From contig NC_057755.1 of assembly GCF_004010195.1 (NCBI RefSeq), positions 10,139,989-10,203,988 on the forward strand: a DNA stretch of 64,000 nt, in the 5' to 3' direction. The position numbers and the translations under genes were made by a program. The stretch comes from Chiloscyllium plagiosum. Its lineage: Eukaryota. Every line of letters starts with the position of its first letter. Position 1 is the stretch's first letter. Below, piece by piece: positions 5,830-53,259 of the stretch. The notes under the pieces were generated by a model. That model was not told the origin of the DNA and made no database searches. It was given only the letters and a program-made list of their open reading frames with translations.

Positions 5830-7590
5830 ACCAAACGCCTTCTTCACTCACTTATTTACCTGCGAATCCACTTTAAAGAAGCTGTGAATCTGCACTTCCA
5901 GGTGTCTTTCTTCAGCAATACTCTCGAGGTCATTACCATTAAGTGCATAAGTCCTGCTAAGATTTGCTTTCCCAAAATGCAGCATCTCGCATTTATCTAA
6001 TTTAACTGCAATCTGCCATTTCTCAGCCCATTGGCCCATCTGGACAAGATCCCGTTGTAATCTGAGGCAACCTTTTCGCTGTCCACTACACCACCAATTT
6101 TGGTGTCATCTGCAAACTTATTTGCTTTCCCAAAATGCAGCATCTCGCATTTATCTAATTTAACTGCAATCTGCCATTTCTCAGCCCATTGGCCCATCTG
6201 GACAAGATCCCGTTGTAATCTGAGGCAACCTTTCGCTGTCCACTACACCACCAATTTTGGTGTCATCTGCAAACTTATTAACTATACGTCTTATGCTCAC
6301 ATTCAAATCATTTATAGAAATGATGAAAAGTAGTGGACCCAGCACTGATTCTTGTGACACTCCACTGGTCACAGGTCTCTAGTAAAAAAAAAAGCCCTCC
6401 AGCACCACCCTTTGTCTTCTACTTTTGAGTCAGTTCTGTATGCAAGTGGCTAGTTCTCCTTCTTTTCCATGAGATCTGACCGTGCTAACCCAGTCTTCCA
6501 TGGGGAACCTTGTCAAACGCTTTAATGAAGTCCATATAGATCACGTCCACCGCTCTGCCCTCGTCAATCATCTTTGTTACGTCTTCAATAAACTCAATCA
6601 AGTTTGTGAGACAGGACACCCCATCCACAAAATCATGTAAACCGCTCCCAATCTGTCCTTGCCTTTCCGAATGCATGAACATCCTGACCCTCGGGATTCC
6701 ATCCAACAACTTACCCATCACCAACGTCGGGCTCACTGGTCTATAGTACTTTGGCTAGTTGTTAGCACTCTTCTTAAAGAGTGGTACCACGTTAGCCAAC
6801 CTCCAACCTTCGGACACCTCACCTATGATTATCGATGATACAAATATCACAGCAACGTGCCCAGAAATCACTTTCCTACCTTCCCACAGAGTTCTAGGAT
6901 ACACCTGATCGGATCATCGGGACTCATCCACTTTTAAGTGTTTCAAGACTTTCAATCCCGCAATTCCTACACTGTCATATGGGCATTTTGAAAGATGCCA
7001 CCACATGTCTCCCTACATTATATATCTTCCATGTCCTTTTACAGTGTAAACAATGATGCAAAATAATCATATAATATCTCCTCCATCTCCTGTGGCTCCA
7101 CGCAAAGGCCACCTTGCTGATCTTTGAGGGGATCCATTCTCTCCTGAGTTGCCCTTTGGTCATTAATGTATTTGTAAAAACCCTTTAGATTCTCCTTAAC
7201 TCTATTTGCCAAAGCTATTCATGTCCTCTTTTGTTTGGCCCTCCCGATTCTCTCATAAGTATGCTCATACTGTATTTTTACTCTTCTAATCATTCATTCG
7301 AGCTATCTTGTCGATACCTGACACTTGCCTCCTTCTTTCTCTTAACCAAACCCTCAATTTTTTCGTCATCCAGCATTCACTTCACCTACCAGCGTTTCCT
7401 TTCACCCTAACAGGACTATACTTTCTCTGCACTCTTGTTATCTCATTTCTGAAGGTTTCCCATTGTCCTACCATCCCTTTACCTGCGAACATCTGCCGCC
7501 AGTCAGCTTTTGAAAGTGGTTGCCTAATACCATCAAAATGAGCCTTGCTCCAATTTAGAACTTCAGCCTTTAGATCTGGTGTATCATTTG
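5830..7590 (-). mobile_element. CR1/HER1 LINE ORF2 (RT) fragment
   Basis: ORF track: SCLTNLIEF, DVIYMDFIKAFDKVPH, GVSQESVLGPLLF, KFADDTKIGG, WAEKWQ. Confidence 0.95.
5962..6279. repeat. Tandem duplication with ~158 bp unit inside the CR1
   Basis: atttgctttcccaaaatgc...tgcaaactt occurs twice back to back, differing by a 1-nt indel. Confidence 0.95.
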
Positions 7591-8074: not shown

Positions 8075-9045
8075 TTCAGCAATTTTAATTTAGATAAATG
8101 GGAAGTGCTGCATTTTGGGAAAGCAAATTTTTGCAGGACTTATACATATAATGGTAAGGTCTGAGGGCGTGTTGCTGAACAAAGTGACCTTCGAGTGCAG
8201 GTTCATAGTTGCTTGAAAATAGAGTCGCAGGTAGATTGGATAGTGAAGAAGACTATGAGAAAGTGAGGACTGCAGATGCCAGAGATCAGAGCTTAAAAAT
8301 GTGTTGCTGGAAAAGCGCAGCATGTCAGACAGTGTCAAAGGAGCAGGAGAATCGACGTTTCGGGCATAAGCTCTTCTTCAGGAATTATCAATGAATATTA
8401 GTGAAGAAGACGTTTGGTATGCTTTCCTTATTGGTCAGAGTGTTGAGTAAAGAAGTTGGGAGGTCATGTTGCGGCTGTACATGACATTGGTTAGGCCACT
8501 GTTGGAATATTGCTTGCAATTCTGGTCTCCGTCCTATCGGAAATATGTTGTGAACCTTGGAAGAGTTGAGGAAAGATTTACAAGGATGTTGCCAGGGTTG
8601 GAGGATTTGAGCGACAGGGAGAGGCTGAACAGGCTGGGCTGCCTGGAGCATCGGAGGCTGCGGGTTTGACCTTCTAGATGTTTACAAAATTATGAGGGGC
8701 ATGGATAGGGTAAATAGGCAAAGACATTTCCCTGGGGTCAGGGAGTCCAGAACTAGAGGGAATAGGTTTAGGGTGAGAGGGGAGGAATGTAAAAGAGACG
8801 TAAGAGGCAACTTTTTCACACAGAGGGTGGTACGTGCATGGAATGAGCTGCCAGAAGAAGTGGCGGAGACTGGTACAATAGCAATATTTAAGAGGCATTT
8901 GGATTGGTATATGAATAGGAATGATTTTGAGGGATATGGGCTGGGTGTTGGCAGGTGAGACGAGATTGTGTTGGGATATCTGGTCGGCATGGACTTGTTG
9001 GACCGAAGGGTCTGTTTCCATGCTGTACATCTCTATGACTCTATT
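8075..9045 (+). mobile_element. CR1/HER1 LINE 3' fragment
   Basis: LYMTLVRPLLEYCLQFWSP, FFTQRVVRAWNELP, ctatgactcta tail. Confidence 0.95.
8254..8398 (-). mobile_element. Short Penelope-like terminal fragment with hammerhead motif and 13-bp TSD
   Basis: TSD tagtgaagaagac at 8241-8253 and 8399-8411; minus strand ctgaagaagagcttatgcccgaaacgtc. Confidence 0.85.
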
Positions 9046-10390: not shown

Positions 10391-11732
10391 GATTCTGGAT
10401 TAGTGGTGCTGGAAGAGCACAGCAGTTCAGGCAGCATCCGAGGAGCAGTAAAATCGACGTTTCGGGCAAAACCCTTCATCAGGAATACAACCAGACAGCC
10501 TGAATGGTGGAGAGATAAGTGAGAGGAGGGTGGGGTGGGGAGAAAGTAGCATAGTGTACAATAGATGAGTGGGAGAGGGGATGAAGTTGATAGGTCGGGG
10601 GGAGGGTGGAGTGGATAGGTGGAAAAGAACATAGGCAAGTAGGAAAAGTCAGAACAAGTCATGGGGACAGTGCTGAATTAGAAGTTTGGAACTGGGGTGA
10701 GGTAGGGGAAGGGGAAATGTGGAACCTGTTGAAGTCCACATTGATGCCCTGGGGTTGAAGTGTTCTGAGGCAGAAGATGAGGCGTTCTTCCTCCAGGCGT
10801 CAGGTGGTGAGGGAGCGGCGGTGAATGAGCCCCAGGACCTCCATGTCCTCGGCAGAGTGGGAGGGAGAGTTGAAATGTTGGGCCAGAGGGCGGTGTGGTT
10901 GATTGGTGCGTGTGTCCCGGAGTAGTTCCCTAAAGCGCTCTGCTAGGAGGCGTCCAGTCTCCCCAATCGCATCGGGAGCAACAGATACAATAAATGATAT
11001 CAGTGGATGTGCAGGTAAAACTTTGATGGAGGTTGAAGGCTCCTTTAGGGCCTTGGATGGAGGTGAGGGAGGAGATGTGGGCGCAGGAGTGGAAGAAACG
11101 GATGGCTTGTAGGCCGTGGTCATGGCAAATGGAGGTGTAGAGGGATTGGATATCCATGGTGAAGATGAAGCGTTGGGGGCTGGGGAAACGGAAGTCTTGG
11201 AGGAGGTGGAGGGTGTGGGTGGTGTCTCGAACGTATGAAAGGAGTTCCTGGACTAGGGAGGATAGGACAGTCTCGAGGTAGGTAGAAATGAGTTCAGTGG
11301 GGCAGGAGCATGCTGAGACAATGGGTCGGCCATGTTGTTCCGGCTTGTGTATCTTGGAAAGGAGGTAGAACTGGGCAGTGTGGGGTTCCCGAACTATGAG
11401 GTTGGAAGCTGTGGTTGGGAGATCTCCCGAGTTGATGAGGTTCTGTATGGTCTGGGAGATGATGGTTTTGTGATGGGGTGGGTCATGGTCGAGGGAGTGG
11501 TAGGAAGAGGTGTCTTCGAGTTGGCGATTGGCTTCAGCTGTGTAGAGGTCAGTGCGCTAGACTACCACTGCGCCCCCTTTATCTGCTAGCTTGATGGTGA
11601 GGTCAGGATTGGAGCAGAAGGATTGGAGGGCTGCACGTTGTGAGGGTGAGAGGTTGGAGTGGGGGAGGGAGGTAGACAGGTTGAAGTGGTTAATGTCCCG
11701 GCGTCAGTTGGAAGTGAAGAGCTCGAGGACAG
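10391..11732 (-). mobile_element. Penelope-like retroelement (internally deleted RT + GIY-YIG endonuclease + terminal repeat)
   Basis: FTMDIQSLYTSI RT motif; IIYCICCSRC..IGETGRLLAERFRE..AQHFNSPSH; hammerhead motif near the 3' end. Confidence 0.93.
10451..10486 (-). ncRNA. Minimal type I hammerhead ribozyme motif (Penelope-associated)
   Basis: ttc-CUGAUGA-a-gggu-uuu-gccc-GAAA-c-GUC-gauu. Confidence 0.75.
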
Positions 11733-11869
11733 GTAAAAGGGGACCCCTGAAGTTAATTGCAGATAAATGGTTAAGTCAGAAATCAGAGAGCACACATTTG
11801 AACAATGTTTCAAATCATACAGAATGTATAAATAGAGCAGTTGAACTGGATAGACATCATTTGAAAGCA

Positions 11870-12800: not shown

Positions 12801-13252
12801 GGGTTTTACTGTAATTTACTTACAAAGTGTTGGTGATACCACATCTGCAGTACCACATCTGTTTGGTCCAATTATCTGAGATATTTATTTCAATTTCAGA
12901 GGTTAGATCAGATGATCCCAAAATGGGAGGGGTGTCAAATGAACAATGCAACTCGATCTTCCTGCTCCTCAGATGCTGCCTTATCGGCTGTGCTTTTCCA
13001 CCACCACACTTTTCGACTCTGATCTCCAGCATCTGCGTCCTCACTTTCTCCTGGGACTCTACTCACTGTAGTTTAGAAGAACGTGCGATGATCTCACTGT
13101 GACACATAGGATACGTCAGGGGCTTGACAGGGTCAATGCTACGAGGATGCCTGATTTGATTTATCTGATTTGTTGCATTGTTCTCACATGTGGACTTTTG
13201 TTTTAGTTGAAGTAAGGACAGATCATAATGTACAAGGGCCCACAGCTTGTAG

Positions 13253-13454
13253 AGATGGAAATGTGTTGCTGGAAAAGCGCAGCAGGTCAGGCATCATCTA
13301 GGGAACAGGAGAATCGACGTTTCGGGCATTAGCCCTTCTTCAGGAATCCCGAAACGTCGATTCTCCTGTTCCCTAGATGCTGCCTGACCTGCTGCGCTTT
13401 TCCAGCAACACATTTCCATCTCTGATCTCCAGCATCTGCAGACCTCACTTTCTC
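13253..13454. mobile_element. Fold-back Penelope-derived mini-element with 14-bp TSD
   Basis: TSD cccacagcttgtag at 13239-13252 and 13455-13468; inverted arms ~13251-13326 and 13348-13423; empty site in the paralogous region near 40350. Confidence 0.9.
13311..13348 (-). ncRNA. Minimal hammerhead ribozyme motif
   Basis: gauuc-CUGAAGA-a-gggc-uaau-gccc-GAAA-c-GUC-gauuc with a perfect stem II. Confidence 0.75.
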
Positions 13455-13559
13455 CCCACAGCTTGTAGGGTGATTGAACAGAATGAAGCAAACAGATTTA
13501 TGTCTGCATGGGAGCTGGACAAATAGCAAGAGCAACATTAGATTTGAAACTTGACAGGT

Positions 13560-13950
13560 CCATTTAGCTGTCTAATAATTACGGGGATGAAGCCGGTTTT
13601 GAACATCCTGCTATAAATGTTTAAGAATCTGCATCTTCTTCCTGACAGAAGTGTCTGCAAGAGATTATAACGAGGATGGGAGGGGTCTTTCCAGTTGCTG
13701 ACTGCTTTTCCGCAGAATTGACAAGTGCAGAGTCAATGGGTGGGTAGTCAGCTTGTGTGATAGTCTAGACTGCATTCACGCCTCTCTGTATTTTCTTATG
13801 GATCTGTGGAGAACAGCTGCTGTACCAAACGTTGATGCATGCAGTTAGAATGTTTCCTATGGTGCATGTGTAATCGTTACTGAGGGTCATTGTGGACATG
13901 CTGAATTTCTTTCGCATCCTGAGGAAGAAAAGGTATTGCTTTCCCTTCAC
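13560..13950 (-). mobile_element. Old Rex1/Babar-like LINE 3' fragment (paralogue ~39900-40300)
   Basis: CTIGNILTACINVWYSSCS..KIQRGVNA. Confidence 0.6.
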
Positions 13951-14377
13951 TAGAGACTGGAAAAAGAGAGAACTGACCCAGAATAAAAAGTTTCACACTG
14001 AGATAAAGAGGAATTTATTCTCTTAGTGGGCTCTATATCTTTGATAATCACTGCTAAAGAGAGCTATGGCAAGACAATCGCTGTCTCTATTTAAGGCTGA
14101 GACAGATAGTTTCTTCAGCAGTCGGGCAATGAAGGGCTGTGGGGAAATGACACGATAGCGGATGGGAGGGGTGTTGAATCAGCCAAGATCATTTTGAATG
14201 TTGGTGCAGGATCAAAGAGTCAAGCAGCAGAATCCTGTTGCAATTTTCTATGCTATTTTGGTCTCATACATAGGTTTCGAGCCCAACTGCAATGTGGTTG
14301 AGTCCTAACATTCCTCGGGGCACATCGGGAAGGACAGTTGTCATACTGATTCAGTGGTTGAGGATAGTACGATGGCT

Positions 14378-14725
14378 CAGCAGTGAAGGTAAGCATGGCG
14401 GTTCAGGGATTGGTACTGCTGCCTCACAGGACCACGTGTCCTGATACGATTCCACATTCTTTGGCTATCTGTGTGAGTTCACATGTTCTCCGTGATTCTG
14501 CATGAGTTTCCTCCTGGTGCTCTGGTTTCCTTCCACAAATGAAAACTATGCAGCTTAGGTGAATTAGCCATGCTGTATTTCCCGTAGTGCTCAGGTATGT
14601 GAAGGTCACGTGCATTAGACATAGGAAACATGGGTATGGTATTTGCTCTGATGCTATTTAAAGGTTCAGTGTGGACTTGAATTTTGGAATGGCCTTTTCT
14701 TACCCTATACGAATTCTATGATTTT
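14378..14725 (+). mobile_element. Old V-SINE (paralogue ~39100-39470 minus)
   Basis: Degenerate V-domain tgtgtgagttcacatgttctcc...ggtttccttccaca. Confidence 0.75.
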
Positions 14726-15031
14726 ACAATAAATATTGGCCAAGCCAGTAACTCCTATACCCTAGAGAATTAAAAATTCGAATCGTGATCCTTGTTTAAA
14801 TCTGTTTATCTTTCCTCATAGTAAACCTCCTGTTAATTGGCATCTTGTCTCGGGGAAGGTACAGTCTCTCTAAATGTATCACTTGCTATCTGTTGGCCAT
14901 GGCTGCAGCAGATCTCATGGTGATTATGTGCAACGTAATCTTGTCTCTTTGTGGCAGCACTTTATTGGTGGGACTCCTTCCTGCTCTAACCTCCAATGTG
15001 CATATTTGTTCTCGATCTATCTCCCACGAGT

Positions 15032-15229
15032 TGATAATGTGTTGCTGGAAACGCGCAGCAGGTCAGACAGCATCCAAGGAGCAGGAGAATCGACGTTTCG
15101 GACATGAGCCCTTCTTCAGGCTCCTGAAACGTCAATTCTCCTGCTCCTTGGATGCTGCCTGACCTGATCCGCTTTTCCAGCAACACATTATCAGCTCTGA
15201 TCTGCAGCATCTGCAGTCCTCACTTTCTA
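15032..15229. mobile_element. Fold-back Penelope-derived mini-element with 14-bp TSD, inside the GPCR pseudogene
   Basis: TSD tatctcccacgagt at 15018-15031 and 15230-15243; inverted arms tgataatgtgttg.../...caacacattatca. Confidence 0.9.
15087..15123 (-). ncRNA. Minimal hammerhead ribozyme motif
   Basis: CUGAAGA-a-gggc-ucau-gucc-GAAA-c-GUC-gauuc. Confidence 0.7.
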
Positions 15230-16204
15230 TATCTCCCACGAGTATCGATTACTTTGTTTGGTTCACTGTGGCTTTTACCTTTGATCATTTTTGAGCAATT
15301 TGTTGTCGGAATCTGAACACAACGTATTGCACCAGGAAGACAGCCAGTGTTATCATGGTGAGCTTGACCGTGCTGTTCTGCTTCAAGAACATCCCACGGC
15401 CCTTTGTATATCGATCATGTTCTGTACTTCACAACAGACAATGGGGGTCCATTGTGTCAAATAATTATATTGCTAGTACATGGAAAGCATTTTCTTGGTT
15501 TGATCTACTGATTTCTCCAATATTTCCATTTCTCCTGATTTTATTGCTGCATGTTCTCACTCCCATGTGTATTTTACTGACTAGCCAGGCTCGGAGGAGA
15601 CTTTGTGGTCAGAACGACAGTAAGAACGACAAAGGTCCTGAGCTCCTGAACCGCAGTAATTCGATAGTTTTAATGTTTTCAATTGCAGTTTCATTGTACT
15701 TTGGATGACCTCAGTCGCCTATTTCATGTTTTATAGATTTTCTGGTGCATTTAAGTGCAAATGGATATTTAACCCCTTTACAATATTTCAGGAATTTGGA
15801 GTCATGCTTCAGTTGCTGAGTTCCTGCACCAACACAGTCATTTTTACAACAACCCAGAGAATGTTCAGGCATCAGTTGCTTGATAGGCTGAAGTCTCCGT
15901 TTAGTCTGATTGGAAATTGCTTTGTAGGAATAAGTGACAGAACTGAAGGGTGTAATGCCTCGCTCAGTGCCAAATTCGGGGGAGCGGGTGACACATTGGC
16001 ATTACCCTTAATTCGAACAAGGAGGCCCAGTTTCATGGCAAAGCAACCTTCGAGTTTTGTGATAGCATCATTGACCTGGATGATCTGAATTTCTCTCCAA
16101 ACTCTACTTAGTACAGTTCTACTTAGTTCGAATTTGTATATCTCCTTCCAATCCATTTGTCTTTAAAAGTTAGAGTGTGACGTTATGGGTACTAAACAGG
16201 TATG

Positions 16205-20430: not shown

Positions 20431-22317
20431 TTTATGATTTTTTGAAAAGATTTATTTTAAAGACAGCTTTACCGAGCTGTCTAGTTGAGTACATTAAAAC
20501 AAAGAGATTGTCAGACCATGGGTGTTTTTGAAATTTGGAACAATAGAAGCAGGCTGAATAGATGTACCCGCTCCCTCAAAGCCAGGAATTTTTGTATTAC
20601 ATTTTCAGCAACAGTTGCTGGTAGGGTCTTGAAGCTGGTTTTGGAAACTATAATATATGTCGCCCTGTTAGTCTGTCTCTCAAAGTTTTCTGTAGACTTT
20701 CACTCTTCTGTACCAGATTTTTCTATTTAACTGAATTTTCTTTTGCCAAATCTGTGTTTATGGGACGATACAGTACTGGAACAGTTATCAGTTGAAGAAT
20801 CTGTTCTTTTGTCAAGGTTTACAATGTAGTAAAGTTATTACAATTCTTTCCCTTTTTTTTGTATACTAACTGTAGTGTATGATTTATCTGGTATATATAT
20901 TAAAACAAGAAAAACATTAAGGTTTCGGCTATCTTCCTTGTCTATTTTGAGGGGGTTTTGTCTGCTACATAATAATCTGGGGTCTCTTGTTAGGATCAAA
21001 TTCCCTAATTCGAGGTTGGGTTTAGAATTATTGACTTTAAAGCGGTGAGCGTTGAGTGTTGGTTTTTGTCATTTCAGGATTTAAATTCAGTTGGATTACA
21101 GATGTGCCATATTGGGCGGCACGGTGGCACAGTGGTTAGCACTGCTGTCTCAACAGCGCCAGAGACCTGGGTTCAATTCCCACCTCAGGCGACTGACTGT
21201 GTGGAGTTTGCACATTCTCCCCGTGTCCCACAGTCCAAAGATGTGCAGGTCAGGTGAATTGGCCATGCTAAATTGCCGGTAGTGTTAGGAGTATGGGTGG
21301 GTTGCGCTTCGGCGGGGCGGTGTGGACTTGTTGGGCCGAAGGGCCTGTTTTCGCACTGTAAGTAATCTAATCTAGATTCACATGCAATTCAACTTCAGCC
21401 ATTTCCGAATATTAAAATAGCATTCCTGGCAAATGCAAATGCTGCGTGATTGCCACAATTATCATTCCTGTCTTCACAGGCACAGGCAACTGTTTCAGTT
21501 CGTTTGTTAATCCCAAAAGATTTGCCTTGCCCGCTTTCTTTACAATGCCGAAAATCAATTCATCTACTCACACGAAACACTCAATTCTACTCAGTCAATT
21601 CAATTCATTTAGTGACTTAAGGAGCCACCAATACACATGGCACATCTGTAATCCAACTGAATTTAAATCCTGAAATGACAAAAACCAACACTCAATGCTC
21701 ACCGCTTTAAAGTCAATAATTCTAAACCCAACCTCGAATTAGGGAATTTGATCCTAACAAGAGACCCCAGATTATTATGTAGCAGACAAAACCTCCTCAA
21801 AATAGACAAGGAAGATAGTCGAAACCTTAATGTTTTTCTTGTTTTAATACATATACCAGATAAATCATACACTACAGTTAGTATACAAAAAAAGAGAAAG
21901 AATTGTAATAACTTTACTACATTGTAAACCTTGACAAAAGAACAGATTATTCAACTGATAACTGTTCCAGTACTGTACCGTCCCATAAACACAGATTTGG
22001 CAAAAGCAAATTCAGTTAAATTGATTAATCTGGTACAGAAGAGTGAAAGTCTACAGAAAATTTTGAGAGACAGACTAACAGGGCGACACATACTATAGTT
22101 TCCAAAACCAGCTTCAAGATCCTACCAGCAACTGTTGCTGAAAATGTAATACAAAAATTCCTGGCTTTGAGGGAGCTGGGGTCCATCTATTCAGCCTGCT
22201 TCTATTGTTCCAAATTTCAAAAGCACTCATGGTCTGACAATCTCTTTGTTTTAATGTACTCAACTAGACAGCTCGGTAAAGCTATGTTTAAAGTAAATCT
22301 TTTCAAAAAATCATAAA
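20431..22317. repeat. Long inverted repeat: arms 20431-21110 and 21637-22317
   Basis: Arms are reverse complements over ~680 bp with scattered substitutions. Confidence 0.95.
21114..21375 (+). mobile_element. HE1-like V-SINE with an internal deletion
   Basis: gggcggcacggtggcacagtggttagc head; aatctaatcta tail; lacks part of the V-domain present at 36583. Confidence 0.93.
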
Positions 22318-38091: not shown

Positions 38092-39011
38092 TCAGTTCTG
38101 ATGATTTATTAATTTAATGCCATTTCTGATCAGAGTAAAAGGAAACTTCAGCAAATCAAGCAGCTGCTGCCTGAACATTCTCTGGGTTGCTGTATAAATT
38201 ACCGTGTTGCTGCAGGAGCTCAGTAACTGAAGCATGACTCCAGCTTCTTGAATTACTGAGAATGGTGTAAATATCCATTTACGCTTAAATGTGCCAGAAA
38301 TCCTATAAAGTATGAAATAAGTGACTGAAGTAATCCAGAGTAGAATGAAACTACAGGATATTGTAAAAATTAAAACTATCGACTTCCTGCGTTTCATGAG
38401 CTCTGGGTCTTTGTCGTTCTTATTGCAGGTTTGATCCCAGAGTCTCCTTCGAGCCTGGCTCGTAAGTAATATACATCTAGCAGTGAGAACATTCAATAAT
38501 AATACCAATAGAAATGGTACTACTGGAGTAATCAGTTGCTCAAGCCAAGAAAATGCTTTCCATCCATTTTGAACATATAGGACTGATGGCACACGGCACC
38601 CCCATTGTTCATTGTGAAGTACAGCAGATGATGTGTACACAAAGGGCCATGGGATGTTTTTTAAGCAGAGCAGCACGGTTAAAGTCATGATAACAACACC
38701 AGCTGTCTTCCTAATGCAATACTTTGTTTTCAGATTCCGACAGCAAATAGCTACAAAGCGATCAAAGGTAAAAGCGACTGTGAACCAGACAGAGCAATCA
38801 ACACTCATGGGAGACAGGTAGAGAACAAGTTTGCAGACTGCAGTGTAGAGCAGGAACGTTTTTCGCCAGTAAATTGCTGCCACACGATACAATATTACGT
38901 TGCACACAATCACCATGAGATCTGCTGTAGACATGGCCAACAGATAGAGAGTGATACATTTAGAGAGATTGTACCTTCCCCGTGACAAGATGCCAATTGT
39001 CAGGAGATTTA
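38092..39011 (-). CDS. GPR139/GPR142-like class A GPCR, exon 2 (end of TM1 to stop)
   Basis: Acceptor tttctttcctaacag|TA; uninterrupted ORF with LAMSTADL, FTFDRFVAIC, FILLW, SSCSNTVIY and six further hydrophobic segments. Confidence 0.95.
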
Positions 39012-42000
39012 CTGTTAGGAAAGAAAAACAGAGTTAAGCCAGAATCACGATTTGACTTTTTAGTTCATATCTGGGCCAGGCCAGTATTTATTAGGGATTG
39101 AAATAATTCCTACTTTGTGGTAAAAGGCACTTCCGACAATCAAGTCAACACTGACCCTTCAAGTCGCATCAGACCAATACCAACACCTGTGTTTTCCATG
39201 GCTAAACGACCTAATCCGAATATTACTGAAAACTATGCGAAATATAGCATAGATAATCCACCTCACATGTACACCATTTGACTGTGGGTGAAAAACGAAG
39301 CATCTGGAGGAAATCCATGCAGACACACGGAGAACGTGCAAACGCCACACATTCACCCGAATTTAGAATCAAATCCATGTACCTGGAATTGTGAAGCACA
39401 GTGCAAATCAATAAAACACCATGTTTTCCTTCACCTTTGATCCACTGTACCATCCTTAACCACTGAGGCAATCTGCCACCGTTCTCAATCTGTAATTATC
39501 CTGCGGGCAAATAAGAGTCAACCACAAAACTGTTGGTCTGTAGACGTATGTATGAGACCAAGCGACCATACAAAATAGGAACAGAATTCTGCTATTTTTT
39601 CTCTTGATCCTGCTCCACCATGCAAAATGGCCGTGGCTGATTCAGCACTCCTCAAATCCACTGCTGTTTTATTTCTCCACAGCCCTTAAGTCACCGAGGG
39701 ATGAAGAATCTAACTATCTCAGCCTTAAATACAGGCAAGAATTCAGTTCTCACTGCTCTCTGTAGCAGGAAGTTCAAACACCAAAAAATCCTTTCAGAGA
39801 AGTTCCTCCAGATATTCGTGTTAAATTGGTACTCCTTTAATTTGGGACAATGCCCTCTCATTCTACACTCTACAATGAAGGGGAAAATACCTTTTCTTCC
39901 TCAGGATGCTAAAGAAATTTAGCATGTCCACAAGGACCCTCAATAACTTTTATAAATGCACCATAGAAAGCATTCATTCAGGGTGCATCACTGTTTGTTA
40001 CAGGTACTGCTCTGCACAGGGCCATAAGAAGCTGCACAGAGATGTGAATGCAACCCAGGCAATCACCTAAGCTAACCTCTCACCCATTCACTGCATCTAC
40101 ACTCTTCATTGCCACGGAAAAGCACCAACAGCATCTAGACCGCTCCCACCCTGGTTGTAATCTCTTCCAACCTCTTCTGCCAGGCTGAAAATATAGATTC
40201 TTAAACAGAAATGTCAGCTATTTCAAAAACGGCTTCTTCCCCTTGGTTTTGAGACTGCTGAATGGACCTTTTAAAATTTCAAATCTAAATTTGATCTTGT
40301 TTTTTTGTACAGCTGCTGTGCACATGTGACTGTGCATGCCTCATTCTGTTCAATCACCCCACCTCTATGTTCATATGTGTTTTGATCTGTCTGTACTTCA
40401 TGGAAAACAAAACTCTATCCTGTAATCCTTACACATGACAACACTAAATCAAATCAGATAAACCAAATCAAACATGCCTTTAGCTTTGACCCTTTCAAGT
40501 TACTTAAGAATTCTGTTATTTCAATGAGATCACCTCTCATTTTCTTAACTCCAGCGAGTAGAGTCCCAGCCTGTTCAGCCTTTGGAATTGGATATCTGTC
40601 CCACATTGGGGATCATCATGGCGAACATTCTCTTAACTGCCACGAATATATATCTTAGATAATGGGATCAAACTATATCATGCGACTCAGACGCAGTGTA
40701 CCCAAACTACGTAAATACGTTGCAGTAAGACTCTTCTACTCTATAATTCTGTCGGCTAGACCAATTAAAGACCAACAACTGCCCTTCACTGGAATGCATG
40801 ACGCCATCAGGTTGGATTTTGCAGAGATTGACATTGGATAAATGTGTACTGTTCAACTAACTTCTCTTTGATTTCAATATTCACTACCTGACATGATGCA
40901 AAACATTTCTCCAGAAATTACCCCTGGTCGTCTGGGTTATTCCTTCCAAGTTACATCATCACTGCGCTACTGACTGGAATTAGACTGATCTCTCTCATAT
41001 ATTTCAGCCTAAACCATCATTCTGCTTTGCTGAGGATTCGATTCACTGAGGTGTGATGGGCTGCAATCAACATCAATATGTGGAAGATTTTTTTTGTTTT
41101 ACCTATGCACCCTGCAATTGAAATAAATATGAAAAGACTAATCTCAAGTCCTCACTGAGAAATATATTGCTTTGTTTTTACTTTCACCAGTTTGAAAATC
41201 AACCCAGGTATCCCTAAAAGAATGGATAAAAATGTACAATTTGCAATTAACAGAATCGTTTGAAAGGTCTGGCGAGTTTATTTCTTATGTACAACTCCAG
41301 TAATGTTTTGACAAGAAATCTGAAAGTAATATTTACTGTACATCATTTCTGGCTTTTACTTGTGCCTCATTTCCTTAAATCACAGAGAAAATTGAATAAT
41401 TTTCTTGAGAATTTCAATAAACTGGTCGAGGAGTGTCATGTCACACCTGGGGACCTTGTTGCACTCAAAAGCAGGTTGCCGAAATCAGATACAGGGAGTA
41501 TACCACTGCGTCACAAGAACACCAGCGAAATGCAGGATTCCCAGTTAAAATGACTTTCGAAAGTTAGTTCACACATTGACATCATTCTCTGCTACTTTGT
41601 TTAATACCATAGCATCAGTACAAGCCCTCTCTGGGACCTGTCAGGGCATAATGTCAGGAATTGCTTTGTTGCTTCTCTTTGATTACTATTCCATATTGTT
41701 TGACTTTTTTACTTAATTAAATCTTGTTTTTATGAGGCATCTGGCAGGCAGACCGCTTCTGTTTCTCACTGACACCTTTTAAGTTCATGAACAAAACAAT
41801 AATTCGGCATCACTCTCACTTCCTTTAATTCATTGACTACATCGCCATGACCTAGTTACAAATTGCTCCTGAACACCTTGTTCTTCATGAGTTTGTTTTC
41901 TAAATTTCTTGTTTTGGAGCTTGACATATCTCATTTCAATCTTTTTCACTCTGCTTTTGGTGCTCCTTTCAATGTTTACTGCTAACTTTATATTTTCCCT

Positions 42001-49300: not shown

Positions 49301-50083
49301 AATCTACTGGGATCTTCATACCCGAAATCTGTTCAGTCCTGTCCAAATCTCAGACTGGGTCGGTGTAAATCTGTCCAAATCACGGACCTGAAGCCTCAAC
49401 CAGTTACAACATGGGAGTGAACCCTTCAGCACATTAAAGACAAAACCCAGAAAAGCTCACCTCACCTCGTAATCTGTTAAAGAATGAGTAGCAGAGAACT
49501 CCCAATTTACGCAATTTAAATAAAGGGTATCAATTCGTTTTTTAACTCTAAATGTGAACATGAAGCAACAACTTTATGCAACTCTAAGGCCCGTTGCTCT
49601 TCGAGGTTTGTTATCTATCTCCAACTCTATAGCAACGTACTGGTCGAATAAAAGCCTGTATTAAAATCACATTATTTTAATTTCAAAATCATACAGCTAC
49701 TGAGGTCTATCTTCTTTCAGGTGATGATCTCCCTGGGTCTTATTTGGTCGTTTGCTGATATAAAAGGAACCTTGTTCGAGACTGATTTGAATGGATCTCT
49801 CTCTCTCTCTCAATAAAGGTTTAATCTCGACGGCAGTTTACTCAATAACTTTCAAAGTGTCTGCTTCTTTATATCCCCTATCAATGGATCGTCTCATTGG
49901 TTCTAGATTGGCAAAAACAACAAATTCAATTTTCATTGTGTCTTCGTGTCCGGGGGCATAATTTAAACAGTTTGGTTAAATTTGAATGTTTTCCAAAACA
50001 ACAACTAAAACTTAGGTATTTGTTTCATAACCAAATGTTACATATTTTCAATTTTCCAGTAGACTCTGAGAATGGACGTCAGT

Positions 50084-50583
50084 NNNNNNNNNNNNNNNNN
50101 NNNNNNNNNNNNNNNNNNNNNNNNNNNNNNNNNNNNNNNNNNNNNNNNNNNNNNNNNNNNNNNNNNNNNNNNNNNNNNNNNNNNNNNNNNNNNNNNNNNN
50201 NNNNNNNNNNNNNNNNNNNNNNNNNNNNNNNNNNNNNNNNNNNNNNNNNNNNNNNNNNNNNNNNNNNNNNNNNNNNNNNNNNNNNNNNNNNNNNNNNNNN
50301 NNNNNNNNNNNNNNNNNNNNNNNNNNNNNNNNNNNNNNNNNNNNNNNNNNNNNNNNNNNNNNNNNNNNNNNNNNNNNNNNNNNNNNNNNNNNNNNNNNNN
50401 NNNNNNNNNNNNNNNNNNNNNNNNNNNNNNNNNNNNNNNNNNNNNNNNNNNNNNNNNNNNNNNNNNNNNNNNNNNNNNNNNNNNNNNNNNNNNNNNNNNN
50501 NNNNNNNNNNNNNNNNNNNNNNNNNNNNNNNNNNNNNNNNNNNNNNNNNNNNNNNNNNNNNNNNNNNNNNNNNNNNNNNNNNN
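50084..50583. other. Assembly gap (500 N)
   Basis: Run of N flanked by an 89-bp direct repeat. Confidence 1.
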
Positions 50584-51615
50584 AAAACAACAACTAAAAC
50601 TTAGGTATTTGTTTCACAACCAAATGTTACATATTTTCAATTTTCCAGTAGACTCTGAGAATGGACGTCAGTCACATCACAGGTGTTTGCATACTCTCAG
50701 TGCAAACAGCATTCACTATCTCTTGAAAGGTACAGTACAACACCTTCAACGTCATAACACTAGCACATCCTTCCGAAGAAAAGGTGTCCAAAACGGCTTA
50801 CTACATTCCATATACAATCGAATCAGAACCTTCTGTAGCTTCAGCATTTCAGCTCTTGCATTGTCGCTCAATGAATGTTAAGATTACACTTGCTTTCCTA
50901 ACTGCCACATGAATTTGAATGTTAGCGTTAAGACCATGCTGAACGAGGATTCCTCATATATTTTGAGCTTTAGATTTCTGAAGCCTTTCCTAATATCGAG
51001 AACAGTGTACGTCTCTGTCTTTTCTACCAAAGTGCACAAACTCATACTTACGCACATCTCATTCCATCCTGACGCAACCTTTCTCACTGTAATATTCTGC
51101 AAGTATCGGTTGTTCTGTGTCTTGATTACGTTTGAACAAAAAGCCTACCCTGGCTGCATAAACATGTAAGCGCAATCAGTACCACTGATCTTGTCTCCAG
51201 TGTCTCTGATGCAGGAGATAGATTGCCAGACTTGCCTTTGATGAGTTTTTGATGTTGATATTTCTGCAAGAGTGGGAAGTAGAGTACTTGGGAAAGTTTT
51301 TCTAAAGAATCCAGCAACAAGTGCCACAGTCAGTCAATCATAACCTGACAGTAGAGAAAGCCAGGAGACTGATGCTTTCCTTTGAAATAATACAAACCGG
51401 AGAAGTCACTTGAGTTGTTTAATCCTTGCCCTCTCTATATATTAAACAGCCGCTGATCAAATCATTCTCTTGTGTGTTCTGTGCAGTATCGTAGAATTCT
51501 CCTAGCTTGACATGTTCTTCATCATTCAAATTGTAAGGAAGATGTTTCACTATCCTATGACCATTACTGTATATAATTAAATAGCCATTTATTCATAGAT
51601 CCCTTGCTCTCTTAC

Positions 51616-51780
51616 TTGGCATTTGGTGACATCCTATCCAGAGCTGCGAATTATCTTCTGTCTCAACACTGAAGCATGTTTCCTCTAGTGCGGTACTTTC
51701 AGACTGTTGGAACATCAGGTTGCTAATTCCTTCATCACAAATGATTTTCAGACTGTATTTGATGTTGTCCTGAGCCATTA
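51616..51780 (-). CDS. Candidate 165-nt phase 1-1 exon, copy B (probably NLR N-terminal region)
   Basis: gctgtcag| acceptor, a|gtaag donor; open frame MAQDNIKYSLK..CHQMP. Confidence 0.55.
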
Positions 51781-52533
51781 CTGACAGCAATAATGACAAA
51801 ACTGACTGACAGAAACATAAGGAAATAAAGGAATGAGAAAGCGAAACAATGTTATTGAAGTATCAGCTGTAAAATCTGTGGGAACCTCAAACTAGGAACC
51901 ACTTGTCAAACGACAATGCAAACTGATGTGCTGATGTAAACATGCACCAAGAAACACGAAGGCAAAAAGATTTTAGTTGCGTTCTGAAGAGGTTTTACTG
52001 AAATCGCAACGTTAACTCAGCATTTCCTGCGGATATGCTGCCAGATTTCTGGATTTCGACAGTGATTTCACTTTCTGTTTCTGCCTGATGTTTGATTTAC
52101 TGTTTGGAGATTCTGTGCTGGTGTAGCTTTTGGGATGGTGGTGTTAGTGAAGTACGTCAATCAACACAAAGAGAGAAGGTAGCATACGCAGAAGTTAAAT
52201 TTACTGATTGTGCTGTCCACACAAATGAAAAGCAAACTGAATACTACAAGTAATTTCGAACATGAAACTGGATCATCAGCAAATTCTAGACAATTTTATC
52301 CTCAGTACTGAAATTTCTCAAAAAGATTGGATACATTTAGATTGACGTTAATTTCAGCCACTCCTGATGTTGGGTAACATTGTCCATACCGGACAGAATA
52401 ATTTCGCTTCCTGTTTTCCTGATTTCTTTCTCCTCCAGGCGAATGAAATTACAGACTCATATAGAATGCAGAATGCGATTTACAAACTCCAAACCCAAAA
52501 GGACATTTATTCAGAGATCCCTTGCTCTCTTAC

Positions 52534-52698
52534 TTGGCATTTGGTGACATCCTATCCACAGCTGTAAGTTATCTTCTGTCTCGACACTGAAGCATGTTTC
52601 CTCTAGTGTCGTACTTTCCGACTGTTGGAACATCAGGTTGCTAATTCCTTCATCACAAATGATTTTCAGACTGTATTTGATGTTGTCCTGATCCATTA
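52534..52698 (-). CDS. Candidate 165-nt phase 1-1 exon, copy A
   Basis: gttgtcag| acceptor, a|gtaag donor; open frame MDQDNIKYSLK..CHQMP. Confidence 0.55.
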
Positions 52699-53259
52699 CT
52701 GACAACAATAATGACAAAATTCTGTTCACGTCAGGATTTTGGCTTGGGCAGTATGAATTAACATTTAGAAACTGTGCGTGCTGTGAACTTGTCTGCAAAT
52801 GAGAAAATGATAGAAGCCACATGTCATTAAACTTTAAAGAAGAAAATTAATAGCAATTCCAATCTTCATAATTACTGCTTCATTGCTAATTAACGATTGT
52901 TTCAATAAAATGTTCATGCACTTCCAGATAAAGGGTCATTACAAATGTAAAAACCAAACTAACTTTGCAGATAAATTATATCGAATAACTTGCAAACATT
53001 AGCACACTGTTTGAAAATTGCCTGCTTCTTTCTTACAATACAAACTATCCGGTTCTCCATTTTCCAACTGCTCCTTTAAAAAAGTAAATTTGTGAAGTTA
53101 GTCATGGTTAAAACAATGGCAGACAGTAAATTATTTCAATTTTGTATTGGTCTTCCCAGCAGACAAGGTTCTCAAAATAGCTGCATGTCAGGAAGTGCAG
53201 GAAATGAGCAAGCCGAGAAAATAAAACAAAAATCAAATCATCATGAATATGTGACTGAA

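Follow-up and report, generated by a model that had tools for sequence, protein, structure and literature searches.

What are hairpins of about 200 bp that carry a hammerhead ribozyme motif, a tail at one end and a perfect target-site duplication (TSD): a mobile family in their own right, or a by-product of a larger element? Two such hairpins lie in a 64,000-nt stretch of the genome of the shark Chiloscyllium plagiosum (contig NC_057755.1, positions 10,139,989–10,203,988, forward strand; hereafter the window, numbered from its first letter). Judged by sequence homology, their arms are the hammerhead-bearing 3′ end, or pseudo-long terminal repeat (pLTR), of a Neptune-type Penelope-like element (PLE). 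With a probability of about 0.8, we read each hairpin as one extremely 5′-truncated PLE insertion whose mirror half was built anew at insertion, either by priming on both target strands (twin priming) or by snap-back of a complementary DNA (cDNA).

Element 1 (13253–13454) is built from 76-nt arms (13251–13326 and 13348–13423) that are 99% complementary and 21 nt apart; in element 2 (15032–15229) the arms are 72 nt long (15028–15099 and 15126–15197), 92% complementary and spaced by 26 nt. Both carry a tail of 31–35 nt, on the right side only. Perfect 14-bp TSDs bound them (CCCACAGCTTGTAG at 13239–13252 and 13455–13468; TATCTCCCACGAGT at 15018–15031 and 15230–15243), recording a 14-nt stagger. 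Exact flanking repeats of at least 14 bp occurred for 15 of 20,000 random 200-bp segments of the window. Folding z-scores are −22.4 for element 1 and −18.9 for element 2; for each, 0 of 200 shuffles did as well. A preliminary description of this DNA had reported two hairpins with perfect 14-bp TSDs and an unpaired tail of about 30–35 nt, and its coordinates, arms and repeats were reproduced on recomputation.

The arms owe their identity to a degenerate PLE remnant in the same window, whose 3′ end (10397–10486) matches the arm at 82% over 85 nt; the remnant belongs to a related subfamily. Searching with its frame gave 150 matches at E ≤ 1e-10 among 762 candidates, most of them with RVT_1, PF28514 and PF26215, and the best homologue (85% identical) is named from Chiloscyllium punctatum. 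Full-length homologues align to both the reverse transcriptase (RT) part (11727–11092) and the endonuclease part (11091–10731). The remnant has an internal deletion of about 300 codons, fusing the middle of the RT to the endonuclease. A GIY-YIG motif with two cysteines occurs in 47 of the 120 homologues listed; 44 of the 47 also contain a CX2-5CxxC linker, a mark of Neptune and Nematis and not of Penelope/Poseidon (PMC8557442). In the window remnant this linker is deleted save for its last cysteine, and the Neptune-type label rests on the homologues' linker, which Neptune and Nematis share.

The pLTR family is very large. Three DNA-like runs yielded 81,297, 86,588 and 99,810 related contigs, figures that are not a copy number. 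Loose ends at 13347 and 13455 in related contigs represent the native upstream and downstream continuations of the hairpins' exact subfamily, and longer copies therefore exist. Pfam gave 0 families for the degenerate PLE frames (two frames, then three), and an Rfam scan of the window gave no match to a hammerhead family; its single match, to a Brucella sRNA (E 0.12), is far under the gathering score and was set aside as a chance hairpin match. Atlas matches of 0.83–0.86 for the PLE frames were treated as leads only and form no basis of the identity. A 20-nt arm pattern had 0 matches in viral contigs and one in metagenome contigs, in GC-rich unrelated sequence that we rejected.

With hammerhead C3 set to offset 0, the tail-less arms extend from −4 and −1 to about 90 and the tail-bearing arms from 17 to 122–123. 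Within each element the arms stand head to head; one reaches the tail end, and the other stops 31–33 nt short of it, at the tail base. The predicted scissile bond (after offset 27) is spanned by all four arms; the templates were therefore uncut. Of 18 pLTR modules listed in the window, 14 fall at E < 1e-5 (with a profile made from 11 of them). Four are the hairpin arms and the other ten occur in a single orientation, so that 10 of 12 loci hold single arms. Assessed by eye, the 3′ end of the module lies at the tail end in 7 of 14 and at the tail base in 5, with one in mid-tail and one unclear. The first core box is kept in eight modules: the three that belong to the young variant (the left arm of each hairpin and the single-arm copy at 8257–8385) stop 1–4 nt before C3, and the other five extend upstream.

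We lean towards twin priming as the route to these structures. Purified Poseidon protein acts in vitro on both target strands, cutting and extending them; its RT initiates at a pair of internal sites bounding the tail, with uncut RNA as the template, and the protein is predicted to be a dimer (PMC11167929). That 12 of the 14 window modules end at one of the two tail-bounding places supports the same route here. The GIY-YIG endonuclease would nick both target strands, and each target 3′-OH would serve as primer for reverse transcription, with uncut pLTR RNA as the template and a different one of the two tail-bounding start sites for each. Both cDNAs would halt 1–5 nt ahead of the hammerhead core, at the RNA 5′ end or an RT stop, and their ends would be joined head to head into an almost spacer-free palindrome. 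Candidate causes of the stop at the hammerhead are an RNA 5′ end, an RT stop or a processing site; in Drosophila virilis Penelope, an intron ends at helix I (PMC4209133). The tail-bearing arm would lose 18 nt, including helix II, by slippage between CCTGAA and CCCGAA, during synthesis or later in the DNA, and this loss would leave a 21–26-nt spacer with one whole core and one half core. Such a product would be a dead end, its core locked in the stem, and would require no master hairpin.

The centre of the hairpins can be compared with this scheme directly. CCTGAA (offsets −1 to 4) resembles CCCGAA (17 to 22), and dropping the 18 nt between them gives the centre of element 1 exactly. The right arm of element 2 begins TCCTGAAACG, matching the hammerhead front at 4/4 positions before the shared GAA and differing from its own helix II strand at 2/3 (TCCTGAA at the arm start versus TCCGAA in the strand). 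From these alignments, the 'half motif' is probably the product of an 18-nt slip between the two hexamers; this slip would explain both the half motif and the shared restart at offset 17 without a master element. Alternatives are simple truncation involving microhomology or, for element 2, loss of 4 nt combined with a CpG change. Both cores are kept in the undeleted parent junction (13347 to 15120, opposite strand), which occurs in 2, 4 and 6 contigs of three organisms. More widely, the junction data comprise the best-supported 15 of 979 joints, with places converted by us to C3 offsets: 11 are antisense-to-sense, 2 are head-to-tail tandems of a short unit and 2 are internal. Ten of the 11 antisense-to-sense joints leave between −5 and +5 and one leaves at +15. 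The restarts of the 11 fall at −1, 34, 50, 57, 89, 94 or 99, the ten using six of these (not 34).

Comparison of the four arms over 67 aligned positions shows 5 differences common to both arms of one element, 0 that follow the side and 6 singletons. The preliminary description had called such arm variants private to each element. Their sharing within an element holds; at three of the five positions (19, 23 and 66), the element 2 state recurs in the single-arm copy at 8.3 kb. It had also derived each hairpin from a single template, with which the arm comparison is compatible, a pattern that does not tell apart a fold-back, two primings on RNAs from one locus and later conversion between arms. 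The arms differ at 1 position of the aligned core in element 1 and at 5 in element 2; element 1 is on that account the younger.

Several points weigh against this account of the hairpins. The 15 joints of 979 were picked by depth, leaving the diversity of junctions unquantified, and 5 of the 11 inversion joints hold unknown intervening sequence and are possibly not clean junctions. Both elements share restart offset 17 and TSD length, as expected of a discrete family, and a junction differing by 1 nt from that of element 2 is found again in three organisms (4, 5 and 5 contigs). The in vitro data come from Poseidon of Anolis carolinensis, not from Neptune, and that paper shows no inverted products (PMC11167929). 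A palindrome centre with a 3-nt loop is equally compatible with snap-back of the cDNA.

In that second, rather unlikely route, a cDNA primed at the tail end would reach the hammerhead front, prime itself, copy back to the tail base and anneal to the other target end through 2–4 nt of microhomology. The parent junction (13347 to 15120) is just such a 3-nt-loop palindrome, each element's arms are almost the same in sequence, the pLTR pairs with the left TSDs over 2 nt and 4 nt, and self-priming has been proposed for head-to-head PLE junctions (PMC3846280). Under snap-back, however, the stop at the tail base calls for an explanation of its own; that place is a known RT start site, and three single-orientation copies in the window likewise end there.

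We consider it improbable that the hairpins form a discrete non-autonomous family, in which PLE proteins would copy the entire transcript of a master hairpin in the manner of a short interspersed element (SINE), possibly with hammerhead processing. Overall length, TSD length and restart offset are equal in both elements, a junction variant recurs in three organisms, and non-autonomous PLE derivatives are known (PMC8557442; bioRxiv 10.64898/2026.07.22.740005). Yet a master would not predict 0 side-shared differences between the elements, nor varied junctions. Depth at the element 2 junction is 8,706 against 220,173 at 15167 in run X4, and 7 reads against 373 in run X21. Opening the locked core would take about 20 kcal/mol, compared with about 4 in single-arm controls; cleavage would split the element mid-way and not set its ends; and the RT would have to unwind a duplex RNA of 70+ bp. 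The window contains no tRNA, hence no nearby tRNA head for a SINE reading.

The ribozyme itself bears on this question. A motif scan gave six matches to a hammerhead-type core in the window, among them CTGAAGA-N-helix II-GAAACGTC on the minus strand of each element (13343–13316 and 15119–15092). The core boxes CUGANGA and GAAA-C-G-UH are present in both, together with helix II. The minus-strand hammerhead had been described as complete, which holds for the core and helix II and fails for helix I, only 1 bp long in element 2; the plus-strand half motif was recovered as the second box, GAAACGTC, standing alone in both elements. In the predicted fold of a minus-strand transcript, the unpaired probability of GAAACGUC is ≤0.003 for element 1 and ≤0.036 for element 2, and freeing the core would cost 21.6 and 19.7 kcal/mol, respectively, against 3.7 and 4.6 in two single-arm controls. 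The antisense arm would be made first in such a transcript and pair with GAAACGUC, the segment that minimal hammerheads require for dimer formation (PMC4209133). Neither a helix I of 4–5 bp nor an accessible dimerising core is predicted in the hairpins; element 1 could form a longer helix I, only in competition with the stem. On these predictions the fold-back most likely traps the ribozyme instead of using it.

Transcription was followed in RNA run X21, of which about 2% was read. There, 3,417 of 12,955,460 records match, on both strands, and 99% continue into unlike sequence; the copies lie inside longer transcripts, with near-zero depth on the unique flanks of the locus. No peaks of starts or ends appear in this polyA single-cell library, which is blind to small or circular RNA and to true 5′ ends. 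Where hairpins are transcribed within introns or untranslated regions (UTRs), they would provide 70-bp double-stranded RNA.

The preliminary description had offered two alternatives. Its first, a ribozyme-processed family resembling retrozymes or MITEs (miniature inverted-repeat transposable elements), is opposed by the uncut templates, the paired core, the varied junctions and repeats that are neither tandem nor terminal. Its second, in which abortive Penelope integration halts close to the ribozyme and yields a stereotyped product, is supported by arms that are PLE pLTR and by uncut templates. A MITE mobilised by a DNA transposase is hardly credible: the elements are short, non-coding and TSD-flanked with an inverted repeat, but that repeat is not terminal (a 31–35-nt tail lies on one side), and the single-arm copies at 10 of 12 window loci and the homology of the arm to a PLE 3′ end contradict it.

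The architecture is a known one, and the hairpins are not a new kind of element. PLE insertions have been described with an inverted 5′-truncated copy and a tail of 30–40 bp at one end (PMC8557442; PMC3846280; PMC2377424; PMC8969392). With insertions of endonuclease-positive (EN+) PLEs the hairpins share head-to-head pLTRs, a tail at one end, a tail-less inverted copy, a TSD and a palindromic junction; they differ in having neither an open reading frame (ORF) nor a second direct pLTR between the arms, in a unit of about 200 bp and in TSDs of 14 bp, as against 8–10 bp in the Adineta PLE examples. A further difference is that their stops cluster at the hammerhead front. In the open-licence literature we found nothing on ORF-free 200-bp shark hairpins or on stops clustered at a hammerhead. 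Anolis Poseidon, studied in vitro (PMC11167929), is alike in its two tail-bounding 3′ ends, use of both target strands, an uncut template and a pLTR hammerhead; it belongs to the Penelope/Poseidon clade, whereas the hairpin PLE is Neptune-type by its homologues' linker motif, and the hairpin targets are not AT-rich.

Metazoan PLE minimal hammerheads have the same core boxes, a bulged base before helix II, a G-C first pair, no helix III and a palindromic ACGU, and include opposite-strand motif pairs 100–700 bp apart and many solo motifs from truncated PLEs (PMC4209133). The hairpins depart from these motifs in pairing one whole core with a second box only, in a helix II of 4 bp and in being trapped in a long stem. 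Metazoan non-LTR retrozymes are likewise short, non-coding, derived from a PLE pLTR and equipped with a type I hammerhead (PMC7761336; bioRxiv 10.64898/2026.07.22.740005). They are, however, head-to-tail tandems with a whole hammerhead per unit and circular RNAs; the hairpin units lie head to head with one whole core, and we rejected a retrozyme reading for them. Separate from the hairpins, tandem joints of an approximately 127-nt unit (tail end, then the next hammerhead front) occur in 18, 3 and 16 contigs (13347 to 15228) and in 4, 0 and 10 contigs (15120 to 15228); head-to-tail tandems of this kind, and not hairpins, would be the retrozyme-like form.

According to PMC11167929, the steps of PLE integration that follow first-strand priming are unvalidated; what minimal hammerheads do has been called a mystery (PMC7761336). 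Short, young, TSD-bounded palindromes with very many relatives are suited to both problems: comparison of arms could separate twin priming from snap-back, and the large pool of copies would let the hammerhead-clustered stops be measured. In annotation, such hairpins can pass as MITEs or structured RNAs. We offer one extension only tentatively. The subfamily may make an abundant, short, uncut RNA that starts at the hammerhead front, on which a dimeric RT-endonuclease would prime from both strands, producing a fresh palindrome at each insertion with its centre trimmed at the hexamer repeat. If so, many thousands of stumps would amount to an in vivo record of the second, unsolved half of PLE integration, the source of inverted pLTRs and one-sided tails, and the hammerhead would act as the 5′ boundary of a template and not as a cutter.

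Table 1 Hairpin components and related features of the window
Feature	Positions	Strand	Remarks
Element 1, left TSD (14 bp)	13239..13252	+	At the tail base, its final 2 nt pair with the pLTR as well
Element 1, tail-less arm	13253..13347	-	pLTR between the tail base and a point 4 nt before hammerhead C3
Element 1, tail-bearing arm	13348..13423	+	Begins CCCGAAAC, offset 17 from C3
Element 1, unpaired PLE tail	13424..13454	+	31 nt; 33 if the 2-nt TSD overlap is not assigned to the arm
Element 1, right TSD	13455..13468	+	Empty site in a contig of organism C
Element 1, minimal type I hammerhead core	13316..13343	-	CUGAAGA, bulged A, helix II GGGC/GCCC, GAAACGUC; would be buried in the hairpin if transcribed
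Element 2, left TSD (14 bp)	15018..15031	+	At the tail base, its final 4 nt pair with the pLTR, including one G-T pair
Element 2, tail-less arm	15032..15120	-	pLTR between the tail base and a point 1 nt before C3
Element 2, tail-bearing arm	15121..15197	+	Begins TCCTGAA-ACG; an 18-nt deletion has putatively fused the hammerhead front to the second core box
Element 2, tail plus one extra A	15198..15229	+	
Element 2, right TSD	15230..15243	+	
Element 2, minimal hammerhead core	15092..15119	-	Helix I reduced to 1 bp
Single-arm copy, same pLTR variant	8257..8385	-	Tail, full core, 13-bp TSD (8241, 8399); 5′ end as in the element 1 left arm
Degenerate Neptune-type PLE remnant	10397..11748	-	N-terminal part of RT, internal deletion, GIY-YIG endonuclease, 3′ UTR, and pLTR with hammerhead ending at the tail base
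Rhodopsin-family G-protein-coupled receptor (GPCR) pseudogene	14800..15917	+	Broken by element 2 (inside an exon) and two frameshifts

A paralogous block at 37–41 kb lacks both elements, as had been noted before. At the element 2 site it keeps one diverged copy of the target; at the element 1 site most of the target is lost, so that only element 2 has a single target copy there and element 1 has no clean empty site. One is supplied for element 1 by organism C, a related species, in which a contig aligns to 13100–13218 and, 18 letters on, to 13455–14536. Organism B looks alike at this site, on indirect signs: one of its contigs begins to align at 13455, preceded by 162 further letters, and depth is equal at 13182. 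Near element 2, the alignment of an organism B contig ends at 15015 with 40 letters left, and an organism C contig departs at 14804. The inverted GPCR paralogue (38095–39033, minus strand) has an intact 313-amino-acid frame.

Among the single-arm copies, the one at 8257–8398 sits in a repeat resembling a long interspersed element, with a 13-nt AT-rich filler at its 5′ junction. An older copy at 12953–13050 (plus strand), for which no TSD was found, is absent from the paralogue and starts near the predicted cut site (offset about 26). Elsewhere in the window, a 682-bp inverted repeat of 96.5% identity (20431–21110 and 21637–22317) has 526 bp between its copies. A 161-bp tandem duplication (99%) occupies 5962–6279, and a 216-bp direct repeat (95%) lies at 51586–51801 and 52504–52719. 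At 49995–50672, a near-identical 89-bp repeat stands on either side of a 500-N gap and is probably an assembly overlap.

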